Below, one piece after another: positions 7,440 to 16,572 of a stretch of DNA of 64,000 nt. The notes under the pieces were generated by a model. That model saw only the letters and a list, made by a program, of their open reading frames with translations, searched no databases and was not told where the DNA came from. Source of the stretch: Dictyostelium discoideum (taxonomy: Eukaryota); assembly GCA_000004695.1 (NCBI GenBank), contig CM000154.2, positions 4,000,001-4,064,000 on the forward strand. Direction: 5' to 3'. Both the position numbers and the translations under genes were made by a program. Numbering within the stretch: the first letter of the stretch is position 1; each line of letters opens with the position of its first letter.

Positions 7440-8027
7440 TATTAGAATATCTATTTATAATTAAACAATAAAGATAATAAATTACACGATATTTTAATTA
7501 TGTAAAAATGTATTAATGATTAAATTTTATTTTAAAATTTTTATTTTTCGACATTTTTCGTTTTTACAAAAACAACGAAAAATGCGCGATTTACAACGTA
7601 TAGAATACGTTTCATTATTATTATTAAATTATTATTTATTATTATTATTATTATTATTTATTATTTATTATTTATTATTATTATTTATTATTTATTATTA
7701 CTATTTATTATTATTATTGATTATTATAAAATCTAATATTCATTACACAAGGTTTCAATTCTTTTTAAACTAAACTTCAGAATTCAATCTCCATAATTTA
7801 CTATTTTTTATCTTAAACTGTTTAAAATTGATCTAATTCAAAAAAAAATAATATAAAAATAAAATATGAGGAAGGATAATGAGGTTAATATAAACTACCT
7901 AAATCTTAGATCCCACATAAAATACGTTCAATGGGATATTAACATTCAATTAAAATAATACATTGAATTTTATTTTTATTTTGATTGTGTGTTTATTATT
8001 ATGTGATGTGGTGATTGTGAAAAGATT

Positions 8028-8028
<1 letters not shown>

Positions 8029-8100
<72 letters not shown>
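8029..8100. repeat. Poly(dT) tract of about 72 nt.
   Basis: Uninterrupted T run, directly 3' of the Argonaute gene. Confidence 0.95.
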
Positions 8101-8104
<4 letters not shown>

Positions 8105-8115
8105 TTAAAATAAAT

Positions 8116-11078
8116 TTAAAGGAAGAATAATTTATCAGATAATTGAGGCGCAGCATCAGCGAAAACTGTTCTACCAATTAAAAATGCCATTTTGTGTGCA
8201 AATTGACAAGTTGCTGGAACACGAACTATAAATTTTAAATTTTAAAGTATTAATATATATATATCAAAATAAAGATTATTTATATTATTTAAATTTAATA
8301 TTAAAATATTAATAATTACCAGATTTTTCAAAGTTGAAATAAAGATGACACATTTGGAAAGTAAATAATTGAAATAAATCAGCAGGCATTTTTTGTTCAT
8401 CCAATAAAACGTGATAATGAGTTGGATTGACAGAACCATTGTTAGTTACTTGAGAGACTAAAAAGAAATCATACCAATTTGGATGGGTAATTTTTGAGTC
8501 AACCAAAGTACCAGCTGGAGGATTACCAATTGGATCAGCAGTAAATAAACGTGCATTTGTATTCTTTTTGACAATGACATACATTAACTTTGGTTTTATA
8601 CCCCAAGAAGATGGTGTTTCAGCAAAACCTTTTTTCATTGCAGCAATTTCAGATCTATTGACAAGATCTAACATACCATCACCAACACCATCACGATAAA
8701 CTATAACCAATTCTGGTAAACAATTATTGAAACTAAAATATTTTGACATTGCTTCTTTAGTTGCTTCTTCAAGAGAATCAATGATTTCTTTACCAGGACG
8801 CTTTTGAACAAAAGATCTTGAGAAATACTTTTGAAATTTATCATCGATAGTTGCAACGAATCCAACTACTGAATGACCTCTCATATCAGAGTTATGACCA
8901 ACATCGATACCAATGATCATTGTTTTCTTTGGAATGACACCATTGAATATTTGTTGATTGAGACCCCATGGTGCATAACCTAACTTTGCAATTACTTGTT
9001 GTTTTAATTTATTGGTTACTGATCTACCTTTATAAAAAGTCCTTGGGAAAATACATTGAGTTAAAACTTTAAATTGAACCAATGATTTTCTCTTTATCTC
9101 TTTATAGATTTCTGGTTGATTTTGTGGAATTAACATTAAAAAGAATTGAATACCATGTGTTTTAATTGCATTCTCCATGATATTAGAGTATTGAATTGGT
9201 CTTTTATCGCGTGGGTCTGTATAACAAATTGTTGTTGGTTGTGACATTCCAGTTTCATTTATGAAATTATAAAGATTGGTTTGGCAATCTCTTGTTCTCT
9301 CATATTCATCACGATCAACAACAAATGCCCATTTAATATTATTCAATTGACGTTTATTATCATTTGGTAAATTCTTTGGTGCACTTAAAACATAACCATC
9401 AACTTTTAAAGCTGGTTGATATGTAATTCCCCATGGTTCTAATGATTTTGAAACTTTTGGATTATTATTAATATCTGAAATAAAATTACTCAATGTTTGA
9501 TATCTTTGACTTGGATCAAAATTTGAATGTTTTGCTAATTCAGCCATAAGTTTAAAATTTTTACGCATCTAAATAATAGTATTTATATTAATATGTTTAA
9601 ATTAATTAATAAGAATAAAAAATAAAAAGAACAAACTTACATGATCACTTAATCCAGTTAAAAATGTTAATTCTGGAATTAAAAAGATAGTTTGTTTAAT
9701 ACCTCTGAATTTAACTTCAGATTTTAATAATGGTTGACGATAATCTGTAATTTTATGATTTGGATAATTTCTTTGATAATATTGTAAAAATGTTGTTGTA
9801 CCATCCATTTTATCATTAACTCCACTTGACCAAGAAATATTAGAGATACGATAGGTTTTATTATTATAACGAGTTAATACAATTGAATTTATAATTTCAT
9901 CAAAACATCTATCTTTGTCATATCTAAGGTATTTAATTCTATCTAATACAGTTTCAGATCTAACAACTTTTGAACTTGTATCTGCTAATAACATTGTACC
10001 AGATTCTGTTGAAACTACAGATGTACTAAAACCTTTCCAAACTTCAAGTAAATAATCTTCAAATTTAATTTTATTTATTGGTGAATAGTAATTTCTACCA
10101 ATAAGTGAAAATCCCATTTTTCTCATATTCTATATTTATAATAAAAAAAAAAAAAAATAAAAAATTATTAATTATTAAATTTAAAAGAAATAAAAAATAA
10201 AAAAACAAAAAAAATAAACTTACATTTTTTGTAATAATATTAAAAAATTGAGAATTAACAGATGATTTATCCCTATGGTTAACTTCTTTTACTTTTCTAA
10301 TAAATATTTGAACACCATCAATTGATTGTGAATTAATATTGATATTAATCGGAGAATATAAAATTGAATCACCATCATAGAAATAAAATTCTTTTGATAT
10401 GTTATTTAATGAAAGTAATTCTCTAATTAATTTACGTCTCTTGTCAAAAGTAACTTGTGGTGGATTAAAATCAATACGAAATTCTAGTGATTTCCTATCT
10501 GAAATAACAATTGGAAAGAAATTTGAAATTAAAGAAATTTGTTTACCTTGAACAGTTCTTGATTTTGCTGTAACAATTGCAACATTTTCAATGTCAGAAT
10601 CTTTAACCATATCTCTTCTTGAAATTCTTGGAACTAATAGATTTGTATTTGTTGTATTTGTTGTTGTAGTTGTTGTAGTTGTTGTTGTTGTTGTTGTTTC
10701 AGGTGTTTGAGGTTGTGTGATTGGTTTTACTTCTTGAAATTGTTCTTCAAGTGGGATACTGTTATTTTGTTTTCCCCAAGCATTTTGAGTTTGTCTTGGT
10801 TGGAAATATTGTTGTGGTTGTTGTGGTTGTTGTAGTTGTTGTTTTTGTTGTTGTGGTTGTTGTGGTTGTTGTGGTTGTTGTGGTTGTTGTTTTTGTTGTT
10901 GTTTTTGTTGTTGTTTTTTTTGTTGTGGTTGTTGTGGTTGTTGTTTTTGTTGTTGTTGCGGTGGTTGTTGTTGATAATTATTATTATTGGTTCTTTGTTT
11001 CAATGGTGATTGACTTCTATCAATTTCTTGATGAGATTTTGGTTCACCATTGAATCCTTTTTGTTTTTTTGGGATCAT
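8116..11078 (-). CDS. Argonaute/Piwi-family protein of about 900 aa: Q/T-rich N-terminus, PAZ, MID and PIWI domains. Four exons: 11078..10224, 10129..9641, 9568..8320, 8225..8116.
   Basis: PIWI motifs GIDVGH, VIVYRDGVGDG and PTHYHVLLDE..LFQLFTFQMCHLY align to human AGO2 (PSHYHVLWDD..LQILTYQLCHTY). The last exon encodes RVPATCQFAHKMAFLIGRT.., which corresponds to SIPAPAYYAHLVAFRAR. Introns of 94, 72 and 94 nt have GTAAGT/GTAATT...AG borders and preserve the frame. Confidence 0.8.
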
Positions 11079-11705
11079 TTTAATTTGGAAATATTAAAAT
11101 ATTAATTAATGAAAATATTATGTATTTGTTTAAAAGATAAATAGGTATTTAAAAAATTTATATTGTTATAGCAAAAAAAAAAAAAAAAAAAAAAAATAAA
11201 ATTAAAATATTATTTTAATTAAAAAAAAAAAAAAAATGGGTTAGGAATTTGTGAGAAAAAAATAATAAATAAATAAAAAGAAAATATTATTTTAATTAAA
11301 AAAAAAAAACAAAAATACAAAATAAAATAAAATTTAAATTAAAAATAAAAAAATAAATAAAAAAAAAAAATGTGAAAAGATTTAACCACTTAAAAAAAAA
11401 ATTTCCAAAAAAATATCTTGTTTGACAACATTAATTTTAAAAAAAAAAAAATAATAATAATTCCAAGCCCAAAATGCTTAAAAGATTAAGTTTGTAAAAT
11501 ATCTTCTAAAACCATTAAAAAAATAAGGATTTGATTAATTTTTTTTAAAAAAAAAAATTTTAAATTTAAACAAGTTATTATTTTTGTTTCCAAAACTGAT
11601 GATATTTTAAAAAAAGATTTTTTTTTTTTTTTTTTATTATTTGATTATTTATATTTTTTTTTTTTTTTTTTTTATAAATTTTTATTTATATTATTACAAA
11701 ATTAA

Positions 11706-12887
11706 TTATGAATTAATTTTTTGAATACTACTTGAATCGATATCAATATTAGAATTATTAATATTATCATTTTTTGGATATTTACCTTCAACACCCATTT
11801 TATACATTTCATAATTTTTTAATTTAATTTGATCATAATGATATGTAATACATTCATGTGCTTGAGTATCAAGCCAACCACCTTTATCTTTAATCAATAA
11901 TCTTGTAATAACTCTTGAACAAATTGCACCAACTATTGTAATCAAAACTGTAATATATGAACCAATGTCTGAAAGAATTCTAATTGCAAGTTCAAAATTT
12001 GATTCAGTTTTTTCTGTTATCACTGCAACATCATTAAAATAAATTGAATAAGATAAAGTAAATGCTCTTGCAACACTTTGTTTAATTTGCCTTGAGTTAC
12101 TAGTTGCAACAGAATTAATAAACACTTCTTTTTCATCACCAAATGTTTTTATTATTTTTTTTGATGTTCCCAATGTAAATTGTTGTGATGAATCTGAATA
12201 ATATTTATCATCTCCAAACCATACGGAAATTGGGAAAGATGGAACTCCAAGATCAAAATAACCAGCAACTACATTTATCTAAAAAATTTATTTTATAAAA
12301 TTTTCATTATTATTATTTTATTTATTATTATTTATTTTTTATTATTTTTAAAAATAAATATTTTACCTCTAAAAACTCTTTTTCTCCCAAAGCCATTTCA
12401 TCAGTTGAATAATAACCAACGAAATCTGGTGATATTAAAACAAAGGTGGAATTAATTGCATATGCACAATCAAGATCCCCAACTAGTAATTTATTATTAT
12501 TAACACAATTTACCAATTGCTCCATAACATAATTACCCTTTTCATCGTAATAATATCTATTAAAAATTACAGAATATAAAAAAAATAATGAAATTTCATA
12601 GGTATTAAAAATAACATAAAAATGAGGAGGCTATAAATTTATTAGTATTTTTTTTTTTTTTTTTTTTTAAAATAATAACAAAAAAATGATTTAAAACCCA
12701 CATTTATTTTTTCTTGATAATCTGCAGTTATTGAAACAACTCTATTTGTTATATTCCTTTCAATGATAAAGTAACAAATTACAGTAAAACTTAAAACCAA
12801 GAGAATATGTTCAAAAATTTTTATTCTATATTTTTTTAAGCTTACTTTATCATCATTTGGAATACCAAAAATTCTATTGAACACCAT
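11706..12887 (-). CDS. Two-TM membrane protein of about 315 aa, a paralogue of the divergent neighbour at 13215..15500. Three exons: approx 12887..12703, approx 12551..12367, 12278..11706.
   Basis: N-terminal TM (HILLVLSFTVICYFII), an ecto region, a second TM and the motif LLIKDKGGWLDTQAHECITYHYDQ shared with the neighbour. The intron after ..EKEFLE|INVV is at the same position as the neighbour's ..EKEYFN|INIG. The exon1/exon2 junction phases do not match with canonical GT..AG sites, which suggests a sequence error or pseudogenisation. Confidence 0.5.
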
Positions 12888-13214
12888 TTTATAATATTTT
12901 TATTTATAATTTTGATGTCTTAAAAATTTATTTTAAGTAAAAAAAAAAAAAAAAAAAAAAAAAATTAAATCAAAAAAAAAAAAAAAAAAAAGAAAAAAAA
13001 ATTAAAATATCTTTGTAAAGAGAGTATTCATAATTTTTTCAAGTTGATGAAAACTTAAAAAAAAAAAAAAAAAAAATTTTAAAATAAATTTACAAAGATA
13101 TTTTTAGAAGATCAATTTTGTTATTTTTTTTTTTTTGATTAACGCATTTTTAATTTTTTTTTTTTTTTTTTTTTTAATTTTTTTTTTTTTTATATAAACA
13201 AAATAAAAAATACA

Positions 13215-13434
13215 ATGGGTAGATTTCTTACAAATTATTATAATAAAGTTTTTAATTCACCTAAAAATTTCGACGATATATCTTCAAAAAAAACAAGAAA
13301 CTTTTTAATGTTGTTATGTTTTTTGGGTATAATTCTTTGGATTATTATTATTATTGTAGTAGTAAAAGATTCATTAAATAGATTAACTTTTATGACCAAT
13401 GAAATTGAAAATCAAATTATTGTAAAATTAATAA

Positions 13435-13478
<44 letters not shown>

Positions 13479-15500
13479 CCTAATATTTTATTTATTACAA
13501 ATAGATTCCAAATTTAATTTTTACATTTTATAAAAATGTTTCACAATATGCAATTAATTCTCCTTCAGGTGAAGTTATTCCAAGTAATATAGAATTTTCA
13601 AATGGTTATTTTTGCCAAATTCCAGAAAATTCCATAATTGAAAATTGTACTAATACGGATTTGTTAGCTATTGATAAACAATTTGATCCCATTAGAAATG
13701 AAATTTATGTAAAGAATTTTAATCTAACATTTGAAAAAGAATATTTTAATGTAAGTCATTAAAATCTAATATTTTAAAAAAAAAAAAAAAAAAAAATAAA
13801 TAAATAATAATAAAAATTATAAAATTTATATTTAGATTAATATTGGACAAGATTTAAAGAAATACAATGAATCATCGCCTTATGATACTTCTTTTACAAC
13901 ATTTGGAATGAATATTAATAGTTACAATTTCTTTTTGAATGGTCCAATCGATTTACAAGTAATGATAAAGAAAACAAAAAGAATTGATAGACATCAAGAA
14001 GAGACAATGAATTTTATTCCAAGTGTATTGGGTGCTGGAGAAAAAAGTAGCACATGTCCTGATTTCGGTGATAGAAGTAGAGGTTATCTTAATTGTTCAA
14101 CTGTATCGGTATCAATTGTTTATGAGTCTAATATTGTCCCAACTTATAGAGAAGAAACAAATATACAATTATTTAAAAGAATATTAAAAGATATATTTTC
14201 AATTGGTAAATTGATATTGACCTTGATGGGATTAATAATTATTTATTATCAAACAAAGTTTTTATTTAAAGATCAAACAGCTTGGTTTGATAATGATGTA
14301 AGAGATGCAGTTTTATTTCATTTCAATTACCATGAATTGGATCCAGCCGATGATGAGGAAAAACCACCAGGTTTCTTTGCAAGACAATTATCTAAAATAA
14401 AATCTTTTTTTTCTAAAATAATATCTGCAATCAAATATGTAGCCTGTTGTTGCTATCGTTGCCGTAGTAAACCAGTTCCAAAACCACCAAAAACCTTAAC
14501 AAGACAAGAAAAGATTGCAAAGGAAACCAAAGGATCAGGTTGTCCAATATTAAGATTGTTTCAAGGTATTCCAAATCAAGATAAGTATAGTGGTTCAATT
14601 AGTTTAATTAATTCGATAAAATGGCTTTTGTTGGCTATTGTTGTAATTATATATGGTGTTTTCATTGCTATTCAAGATTCTAATAATAGATTAATTATTT
14701 TAAAGTTGGATAATCTTGATAAATTAGAAATTCCTGCAATTCAATTTAACTATACTGGAGACAATTTCTGGTTAAAAAATTATCATGAATATTTACCATT
14801 TGGTCAAAGAAAGTTTTGTGGTATTAATAACACTGAACCAATTTATAATATCAAAAAATGTACATCCACCAATGGATTCCCAAATCAAACTCTAACTCTT
14901 AACGGTGATCATTTAACAAACTTGGAAATTAAAAATGATACAATACAATTAAAAGAAAATCAATACTATGGATTCATTATTGAATCATCTGTTGCACTTT
15001 GGGATTTTTTCCCATCATTTGAACATGTTCATATTACAATGAACATAAATGGTATAGAGTATTACTTAAGACCATTTTCAAATAATACAATTCATTTAGA
15101 GAAAAATGTCTATCATTATAGTAATGGTACTTCAATCACCTCTTATAATCCTAGAATTTTTCAAGCACAAGATGAAATTAATTATCTTGGTAAAAATGCA
15201 AATTATACTTATTATTATGGTAACACCACTGTAAACTTTTTCTATTCCTCATCAAGTATTAAACATACATTTATTGAAGGTAAAACTGATTTAAGATTCA
15301 GAATTGTTTCTGATATTCTTGCATTTTTGACCCCTGTCAAAATTTTCTTTACTAATTTCTTTACATACTTGGTCATTCGTTTCGCTAATAAATATTCAAC
15401 CGCCCATGTTGATTCATCAATAAGAGAAGCAATTCTTTACCATATGAGATATTATGAAAAATATTCAAAAAAATTTAAAAAAACTGGAAAAAGTGTTTAA
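13215..15500 (+). CDS. Four-TM membrane protein of about 660 aa made of two tandem copies of the module found in the divergent neighbour. Three exons: 13215..13421, 13505..13750, 13836..15500.
   Basis: Exons joined at ..ENQII|IPNLIF.. and ..EKEYFN|INIGQD.. (GTAAAA and GTAAGT donors, phase 0). Module 1 has a TM, an ecto domain rich in N-glycosylation sequons and Cys, a TM, then FLFKDQTAWFDNDVRDAVLFHFNYHE. A Cys cluster (CCCYRCR) follows. Module 2 has a TM, an ecto domain, a TM and ..REAILYHMRYYEKY. Confidence 0.6.
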
Positions 15501-15566: not shown

Positions 15567-16572
15567 TTAAAGAATTAATTCCATTTCAAATTGCGAAACC
15601 CAAAAATCTAAACCAATTCTTTTATTAAAGAAATTTTTTAAATTTTCATAACCTTCTTCAATATTTGAAGCATTGAAATTAATCGATTGGAATTCATTTG
15701 ACATTGTATAAAATAATTTAGTTGCTACATTTTTATTTCTAAATGTTGGTGTTACATAAACTTGTCTAATTCTTTGGCTTTGAGAATGGATTGATAAAAA
15801 CCCAATAATTTTATTTGTTTTATTATCTTTTGCAATCCAAATTTTATTAAATCCCATACTAAACTCTCTTTGAATCACTTGATTTGTGTTTGACCAAGAT
15901 GGGTTCATTCTTGGTTGTTGTTGTTGTGGATCATCATTTTCAATGAAATTAATAATATCTTCTGTTAAATTTTCAACTTTTTCAATTATAATATCATTTT
16001 CATTGTTACTATTTAAATATTTTAATAATGAATCTCTATTTAAATCACCTTTATATGAATGTAATTCTCTTGTAATTTTAAATCCACAATTTTCATAAAC
16101 TTTAATTGCACGTGGATTGGTTTGAATAACTTCTAATACTATACTTTTAATACCATTCTCTTTAAAGGTTGATTTCATTTGAGAAATGGATTTCTCAATT
16201 AATTTATTACCTCTTGCTGTTGGAATAACTCCTGTTGCTGAATTATATAATTTTGTTGGATTTTTAAAATTATCTGGTGCAAGTAAAACAAATCCTTCCA
16301 ATTTATTTTCATCATTCTCATTATATATACCTATAGAATGATCCATTGATATACCATCTCCTTGAATTTTTTGTGATAATGATTCTTCCGTTAAAACAAA
16401 TTTAATCACATAATCTGAAAATGAAAAATTAAATACATCTAAAAAAAAACATAACAATAAAATAAATATTTGGAAATTTTAATTTTATAAGAAAAAATTA
16501 ATTTAATTATTAATTAATACCTGTTAATTCTTTTAAATTAAAGTTTGGTCCAATTATTTTAATTGTTTTCAT
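15567..16572 (-). CDS. GNAT-family N-acetyltransferase (tandem GNAT folds). Two exons: 16572..16521 and 16438..15567.
   Basis: Acetyl-CoA motif VIPTARGNKLIEKS..VYENCGFK. Exon 1 (MKTIKIIGPNFNLKELT) joins via GTATTA..TTTAG, phase 1. Confidence 0.65.

Follow-up and report, generated by a model that had tools for sequence, protein, structure and literature searches.

What do two divergently transcribed and related membrane-protein genes of Dictyostelium discoideum encode, one of them built of a single module and the other of two? The question is raised by positions 11706-15500 of a 64,000-nucleotide stretch of AX4 chromosome 5 (GenBank assembly GCA_000004695.1, contig CM000154.2, positions 4,000,001 to 4,064,000 of the forward strand), hereafter the window, where the genes DDB_G0290379 and DDB_G0290381 are located head to head. 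A preliminary description of this DNA had compared the arrangement with the allorecognition pair tgrB1/tgrC1 and proposed a novel paired receptor/ligand system. Our analysis points elsewhere: the best explanation, which draws on a predicted structure, is that the module represents one subunit of a trimeric channel with two transmembrane (TM) segments of the ASIC/ENaC/PAC class. The module occurs in dictyostelids and in a small number of unplaced metagenome proteins. The features on which the argument rests are as follows.

11706..12887, minus strand: single-module gene M (DDB_G0290379), splice model supported by orthologs, encoding 340 amino acids (aa)
12756..12818, minus strand: TM1 of M, approximately aa 24-44, from hydropathy and an AlphaFold2 helix at 14-47, preceded by the conserved pre-TM1 motif FGIPNxDKxS
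11892..11978, minus strand: pre-TM2 motif and TM2 of M, approximately aa 251-279, ILSDIGSYITVLITIVGAICSRVITRLLI, from hydropathy and an AlphaFold2 helix at 244-278
12888..13214, no strand: shared spacer between the two start codons, 327 bp, 8.9% GC
13215..15500, plus strand: two-module gene A-B (DDB_G0290381), encoding 705 aa, identical to XP_635710/Q54G62
13215..14372, plus strand: module A, aa 1-330, introns counted in, with TM1 at ~13302-13367 and TM2 at ~14184-14255
14373..14543, plus strand: cytoplasmic inter-module linker, aa 331-387, with an amphipathic stretch and a Cys cluster
14544..15500, plus strand: module B, aa 388-705, intronless, with the pre-TM1 motif LFQGIPNQDKYS, TM3 at ~14607-14675 and TM4 at ~15303-15377

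Coordinates, splicing, BLASTP and tblastn comparisons and hydropathy agreed in identifying two divergent, paralogous genes for polytopic membrane proteins, one with an internal tandem duplication, as had been described. Gene M consists of three exons (12887-12702, 12630-12367 and 12278-11706), the first of its introns being small (12631-12701). Its 340-aa product is exactly ACTFIT_001516 of a newer assembly and differs from the public AX4 model of DDB_G0290379, which has 292 aa and is probably mis-spliced. Gene A-B likewise has three exons (13215-13421, 13505-13750 and 13836-15500). Its annotated orthologs in the D. discoideum strains ACTFIR and ACTFIW (646 aa) begin at MTNEIDNQ, without exon 1; this is an annotation artefact, the exon being intact in the DNA (MDRFLTNYY...). 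Pseudogenes and chance open reading frames were ruled out, with frames intact in eight genomes and a ratio of nonsynonymous to synonymous substitution rates (dN/dS) of 0.2-0.4 between species.

Judging from the alignments, the paralogy of M, A and B is real and beyond chance. M matched module A with a BLASTP expect value (E) of 6e-9 and module B with 0.009, while module A matched module B in tblastn with E 5.7e-6 over nearly the whole module; all three can be aligned end to end, and the family profile matches two-module proteins in two stretches. Common to the three are the pre-TM1 motif (FGIPNxDKxS in M and B, FNSPKNFDDxS in A), NR(L/V) behind TM1, E..L..RIL.DI ahead of TM2, a Cys pair in between and a post-TM2 motif ending in (Y/F)H. 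The latter is the previously noted cytoplasmic tail motif, which reads LLIKDKGGWLD...ECITYHY in M, FLFKDQTAWFD...DAVLFHF in A and, in a weaker form, STAHVD...REAILYHM in B (RFANKYSTAHVD...EAILYHM). The TM2 segments of the modules are GSYITVLITIVGAICS, SIGKLILTLMGLII and LAFLTPVKIFFTNFF. E242, R250, D254 and I255 (M numbering) are invariant throughout the M, A and B modules, and D13 and S16 of M are at least 90% conserved in a 36-sequence family alignment. The intron between EKEFLE and INV in M and that between EKEYFN and INI in A, whose conservation had been proposed, occupy an identical alignment position and are of phase 0 in both genes; the first introns of M and A coincide too (between EKIN and PPHF, and between NQII and IPNL, respectively; phase 0). 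No further paralog was present within the 64-kb window.

Hydropathy analysis revealed TM1 and TM2 in M, and three clear TM segments with a weaker fourth in A-B; together with the positive-inside pattern it places both ends of every module in the cytoplasm. M is thus predicted to comprise a cytoplasmic N-terminus, TM1, a beta-rich ectodomain of ~200 aa, TM2 and a cytoplasmic helix. The Cys pair is conserved in each ectodomain, in line with the preliminary description, C104 being at least 90% conserved across the family. The abundance of N-glycosylation sequons reported there held for the plus gene, with 5 and 8 in its two ectodomains, but not for M, whose ectodomain has 2; an excess over a composition shuffle was seen in module B only (p ~0.01). 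The Cys cluster CCCYRCR noted between the tandem modules lies at 14445-14465 on the plus strand, and all orthologs keep some Cys-rich cluster; it is a candidate palmitoylation site.

To which fold does the module belong? AlphaFold2 modelling of M with the 36-sequence family alignment yielded a mean predicted local distance difference test score (pLDDT) of 82.6. In this model a beta-rich domain (51-241) lies between two TM helices (14-47 and 244-278), and the second of these is followed by a cytoplasmic helix (288-316). In a Foldseek search of this model against the PDB, the top 20 matches were all PAC/ASOR/TMEM206 (E 4e-11 to 6e-8, probability 1.0), followed by the centipede ENaC-family PDPNaC1 and BRTNaC1, then by ASIC1a, and then by P2X. 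P2X likewise has two TM helices and trimeric-channel topology, but its ectodomain fold differs from that of the module, and its matches were weak (E ~1e-5, template-modelling scores, or TM-scores, of only 0.13-0.19). A second structure comparison scored PDPNaC1 at 10.6, ENaC gamma at 10.3, PAC at 9.8 (210 of 259 residues aligned), BRTNaC1 at 9.7, ENaC delta at 9.4, ASIC1 at 9.3, ENaC alpha at 9.1, and ASIC5 and FaNaC at 8.6 each. Generic helical matches ranked only below these channels, the alignments to which extended over 195-215 residues with the TM helices included. As in DEG/ENaC/ASIC, the predicted model has a pair of TM helices, both termini in the cytoplasm and an ectodomain with a palm/beta-ball core, and its overall subunit fold of TM1, compact beta ectodomain and TM2 corresponds to that of PAC/TMEM206. 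On the strength of this model, the module very probably belongs to the fold class of trimeric two-TM channels (ASIC/ENaC/PAC), and TM2 of M is a candidate pore helix.

The sequence itself leads to no named family, as the preliminary description had supposed. Pfam scans of both proteins and of 16 modules returned noise only, nothing coming near a gathering score; neither the proteins nor any of the 16 modules matched ASC (PF00858) at E up to 1, and the same set gave no match to the Pfam models TMEM206 (PF15122), P2X, TIG, Ig, ERGIC_N and COPIIcoated_ERV. Sequence searches of the PDB with 16- and 36-sequence profiles found nothing relevant and no ASIC or ENaC chain. In a full-text search of the literature we found no paper naming DDB_G0290379 or DDB_G0290381, nor did literature searches return a report of a Dictyostelium PAC or ENaC homolog, structure-based reports included.

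An exhaustive HMMER search with the 16-module profile against 1.84 billion representatives retrieved only 27 proteins at E <=0.001. The named relatives among them are dictyostelid; the remainder, all single-module and without a name, come from short metagenome contigs. The dictyostelid relatives are a second two-module protein of D. firmibasis, single-module proteins of D. discoideum (454 aa) and D. dimigraforme (321 aa), and three proteins of Tieghemostelium lacteum, one with two modules and two with a single one (DLAC_08677 being a single-module gene). No members were gained when homologs were sought by word index from the family alignment, and a scan of metagenome contigs with a narrower alignment found nothing. 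Because the sequence-level link to the channel families is not significant, we filed the module as a new, unnamed sequence family with an ASIC/ENaC/PAC fold, and as a member of neither ASC nor TMEM206. It should be added that several distant single-module relatives from metagenomes and T. lacteum (P0030, P0035-P0050) carry LP.(V/L)TFC after TM1 and RI(V/I).DIGS before TM2, which resemble FPAVTxCN and LLGDIGG of ENaC/ASIC at equivalent positions, a resemblance without statistical support.

Several points weigh against the channel reading, or against the joint assembly proposed below, and have to be set beside the structural matches. The fold assignment is based on one predicted monomer; an earlier AlphaFold2 model, built from 7 close orthologs, was poor (pLDDT 45) and was excluded from the fold search; and the TM-scores to the channels are moderate, at 0.4-0.5. 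No significant sequence link to any channel family emerged from Pfam (ASC, TMEM206) or hhalign. With hhalign the family profile reached E 0.027 and a probability of 1.9% against human ASIC1a, over the last strand and TM2 only (ILSDIGS on LLGDIGG), the pre-TM2/TM2 stretch of M being set on the LLGDIGGQMG/TM2 region without significance, and E 0.21 against human PAC (a sequence checked to be identical to 7jna_A), over the post-TM1 strand only. The ENaC hallmarks are absent at comparable positions of all modules, with no HG before TM1 and no GxS filter in TM2. In addition, a channel model does not account for the rapid, haplotype-structured evolution described below, which ion channels do not usually show; in T. 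lacteum the two-module gene and an M-clade gene lie on one contig but 14 kb apart and not adjacent; and pairing of the genes could reflect co-regulation only.

The module also differs from each of the known channel groups. PAC/ASOR/TMEM206 (PACC1) is a single-copy gene whose products form homotrimers, whereas the present modules make up a multigene family of three old subunit types, of which two are joined in a single chain, and have no detectable similarity to PAC in sequence. PAC conducts anions upon activation by protons, with a TM2 lysine as selectivity determinant. The outer TM2 of module A has a conserved basic residue (SIGKL; R in the relative P0027), without established residue-level equivalence to K319 of PAC. 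Compared with DEG/ENaC/ASIC channels, including ENaC alpha-beta-gamma and the small centipede PDPNaC1 and BRTNaC1, the module is without thumb, finger and knuckle domains, and we know of no natural tandem two-subunit chain in that superfamily.

How might a one-module and a two-module protein work together? The structural relatives are all trimers and a one-module gene stands beside a two-module gene, so the simplest reading is that of a 1+2 parts list for a single pseudo-heterotrimer. The minus gene would supply one subunit (M) and the plus gene two covalently linked subunits (A-B), and one chain of each would make up a pseudo-heterotrimeric channel M.A.B, analogous to ENaC alpha-beta-gamma. 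A fusion of A to B is topologically allowed, since both ends of each module are cytoplasmic, and the Cys-rich linker of ~60 residues would be long enough to span neighbouring subunits. Transcription from one divergent promoter of 327 bp would hold the two chains at a 1:1 ratio. Pore and gate may be formed by the conserved pre-TM2/TM2 segment (E..L..RIL.DIG...) together with the helix after TM2, and the fast-evolving beta-rich ectodomain may sense an extracellular or luminal stimulus, e.g. pH or a small ligand. Across species, identity amounts to 75-83% in the pre-TM2/TM2 segment and the tail and to 60-68% in the ectodomains, as would suit a pore combined with a variable sensor. What the analysis shows is that the three modules are homologous, that their pairing is conserved and which fold is predicted; what we infer is that they form a trimer, its 1+2 stoichiometry, and its channel activity, stimulus and ion selectivity. 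To the joining of M and A-B chains in one M.A.B assembly we give slightly less than an even chance.

The genomic arrangement bears directly on this assembly. The two genes are head to head in all seven orthologous loci, i.e. in four D. discoideum/cf. discoideum strains, D. citrinum, D. dimigraforme and D. firmibasis. A separation by 17-21 genes in other strains, as read from locus tags, was dismissed as wrong; the loci show adjacency and the tags are not positional. With paralogous loci included, a two-module gene was found head to head with a single-module gene in 11 of the 11 Dictyostelium loci examined, representing three paralogous pair lineages; the additional pairs are listed below.

locus L009, 4404-12119: two more pairs in tandem in D. 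firmibasis
locus L010, 3384-7452: a second pair in D. discoideum ACTFIR
locus L011, 3561-7132: a pair of the third lineage in D. dimigraforme

When 40 modules were compared in a neighbour-joining tree, the dictyostelid ones fell into three clades, namely M with a bootstrap of 80, A with 88 and B with 82, and T. lacteum and every pair lineage are represented in each. It follows from this distribution that the fusion of A with B and the M/A/B triad are older than the sampled groups, and that the pair has been duplicated as a unit.

The spacer was anticipated as some 330 bp of AT-rich DNA, in agreement with its actual 327 bp and 8.9% GC, and it is presumed to be a bidirectional promoter. Its left half contains long A-runs and its right half long T-runs, so that each gene has T-runs upstream on its own strand. 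Its length is short, 162-430 bp, in all orthologous and paralogous pairs, and only short islands recur between strains (e.g. AAGATATTTTTAGA and TTGATCAA). An inverted pair, TTTGTAAA/TTTACAAA, was dropped, as other strains do not conserve it.

The alternative that survives best accepts the fold and denies the heteromer. M would be a homotrimer and A-B would form assemblies of its own, for instance three A-B chains giving two adjacent trimeric pores, or A-B with another partner, so that the pairing of the genes would mean shared regulation only. Most channels of this fold can homotrimerise, as PAC and PDPNaC1 do (PMC7904269, PMC12714832). On metagenome contigs, moreover, single-module relatives stand alone, and DLAC_08677 of T. 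lacteum is a single-module gene; in T. lacteum the two gene types are not adjacent. Yet a strict 1:1 head-to-head pairing has survived the duplication of the pair at least twice, the three module clades go back as far as the sampled dictyostelid groups, and both genes share one haplotype genealogy. We regard this alternative as unlikely.

The second alternative is the one proposed in the preliminary description, namely a polymorphic receptor/ligand or kin-recognition system like tgrB1/tgrC1, with ectodomains binding in trans. It draws its strength from variation between strains. The protein identity between D. discoideum/cf. discoideum strains is 84-90% for the pair, far below the 95-97% of the flanking acetyltransferase. 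Between AX4 and the other strains, the pair genes showed a nonsynonymous divergence (dN) of 0.05-0.10 and dN/dS of 0.4-1.2 per exon. In the neighbours dN was far lower, given once as 0.003-0.026 and, gene by gene, as 0.002-0.007 for a helicase, 0.007-0.05 (dN/dS ~0.2) for the acetyltransferase and 0.02-0.05 for a conserved argonaute exon. In a five-strain alignment analysed in 400-bp windows, nucleotide divergence was 0.05-0.16 within 11.4-15.4 kb and 0.015-0.06 in the coding flanks; the shift falls at the 3' ends of both pair genes, so the block is sharply bounded. Inside the block AX4 groups with ‘cf. discoideum’ ACTFIY, with bootstrap 100 for both genes, whereas both flanks, with the argonaute exon and the acetyltransferase gene next to the pair taken as controls, group AX4 with ACTFIR and ACTFIW (bootstrap 98-99). 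At synonymous sites, too, AX4 and ACTFIR diverge more in the block than outside it, by a factor of two to three. A helicase tree was an artefact and was left unused, the loci carrying different halves of a two-halved helicase. Because both genes share the discordant genealogy, M and A-B are inherited as one block, which could be an old balanced/allelic lineage or an introgression carrying both genes.

Such a bounded block with a discordant tree would be expected of long-lived allelic lineages, and the likeness to tgrB1/tgrC1 extends to head-to-head paralogous membrane-protein genes with high strain divergence that are inherited together. The tgr proteins are single-pass, with Ig/TIG-type repeats. 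The present proteins, in contrast, have two and four TM segments and a channel fold in a confident AlphaFold2 model, without an Ig/TIG adhesion domain or the corresponding Pfam matches, and their most conserved parts are the pre-TM2/TM2 segment and the cytoplasmic tail and not a binding surface. By region, close comparisons gave dN/dS of 0.5-0.8 and distant ones, with D. citrinum, 0.2-0.4; it is nowhere clearly above 1, similar in TM, tail and ectodomain regions and no higher in ectodomains than in TM segments; this gave no direct sign of diversifying selection among three D. discoideum-labelled genomes, two of which are nearly identical. Introgression or lineage sorting could yield the same tree, and the 1+2 module count is simpler as a three-subunit assembly. 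Of the earlier suggestion that the proteins look polymorphic, which a single sequence could not show, the strain divergence and the divergent block are thus upheld, while dN/dS above 1 was not observed. On balance, a tgr-like recognition system is improbable. A proposal that joins both lines of evidence is hardly more secure, and we consider it rather unlikely: a new branch of the ASIC/ENaC/PAC fold, with a trimer made of the tandem dimer A-B and the monomer M at a stoichiometry set by the bidirectional promoter, would be kept as anciently diverged haplotypes and act as a polymorphic channel-receptor, its ectodomain under balancing selection (e.g. by pathogens, toxins or self/non-self cues).

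Finally, it is highly improbable that the proteins are no channels but two-TM trafficking proteins with a luminal beta-sandwich, like the early-secretory cargo-receptor heteromer Erv41/Erv46 (ERGIC2/3), since channel structures score higher and align over 195-215 residues including the TM helices, ERGIC_N and COPIIcoated_ERV are unmatched, and a conserved C-terminal dilysine signal is missing, the C-termini varying among orthologs.

The neighbourhood of the pair may be summarised briefly.

7900-11100, minus strand: upstream neighbour, a PAZ/Piwi argonaute gene
10098-11078: N-terminal exon of the argonaute gene, fast-evolving (dN/dS 0.5-1.0, 38-82% identity), its Piwi exon being conserved
15567-16457, minus strand: GNAT acetyltransferase gene converging on the plus gene, with ~66 bp between the stop codons

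The divergence block ends exactly at the junction of the plus gene with the acetyltransferase gene. The window also encodes DDB_G0290391, DDB_G0290395 and a formate-tetrahydrofolate ligase.

Returning to the module as a channel subunit, its significance would lie foremost in its distribution. To our knowledge, ENaC/ASIC channels are treated as essentially animal proteins. For TMEM206, homologs beyond vertebrates and a hemichordate were stated to be lacking (Ullrich et al., PMC6663466). If the assignment is true, the presence of the ASIC/ENaC/PAC fold in a tractable amoeba pushes this class far deeper into eukaryote history. Dictyostelium feeds by macropinocytosis and phagocytosis, and would therefore offer a simple system for the study of such channels in membranes of endocytosis or osmoregulation. 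Unusual selection on the two genes as a unit is suggested, moreover, by the sharp limits of the divergent haplotype block. Fixed-order trimeric channel chains are so far known to us only from engineered concatemers; if true, the natural 1+2 architecture would represent a new way of building a trimeric channel with a fixed order of subunits.

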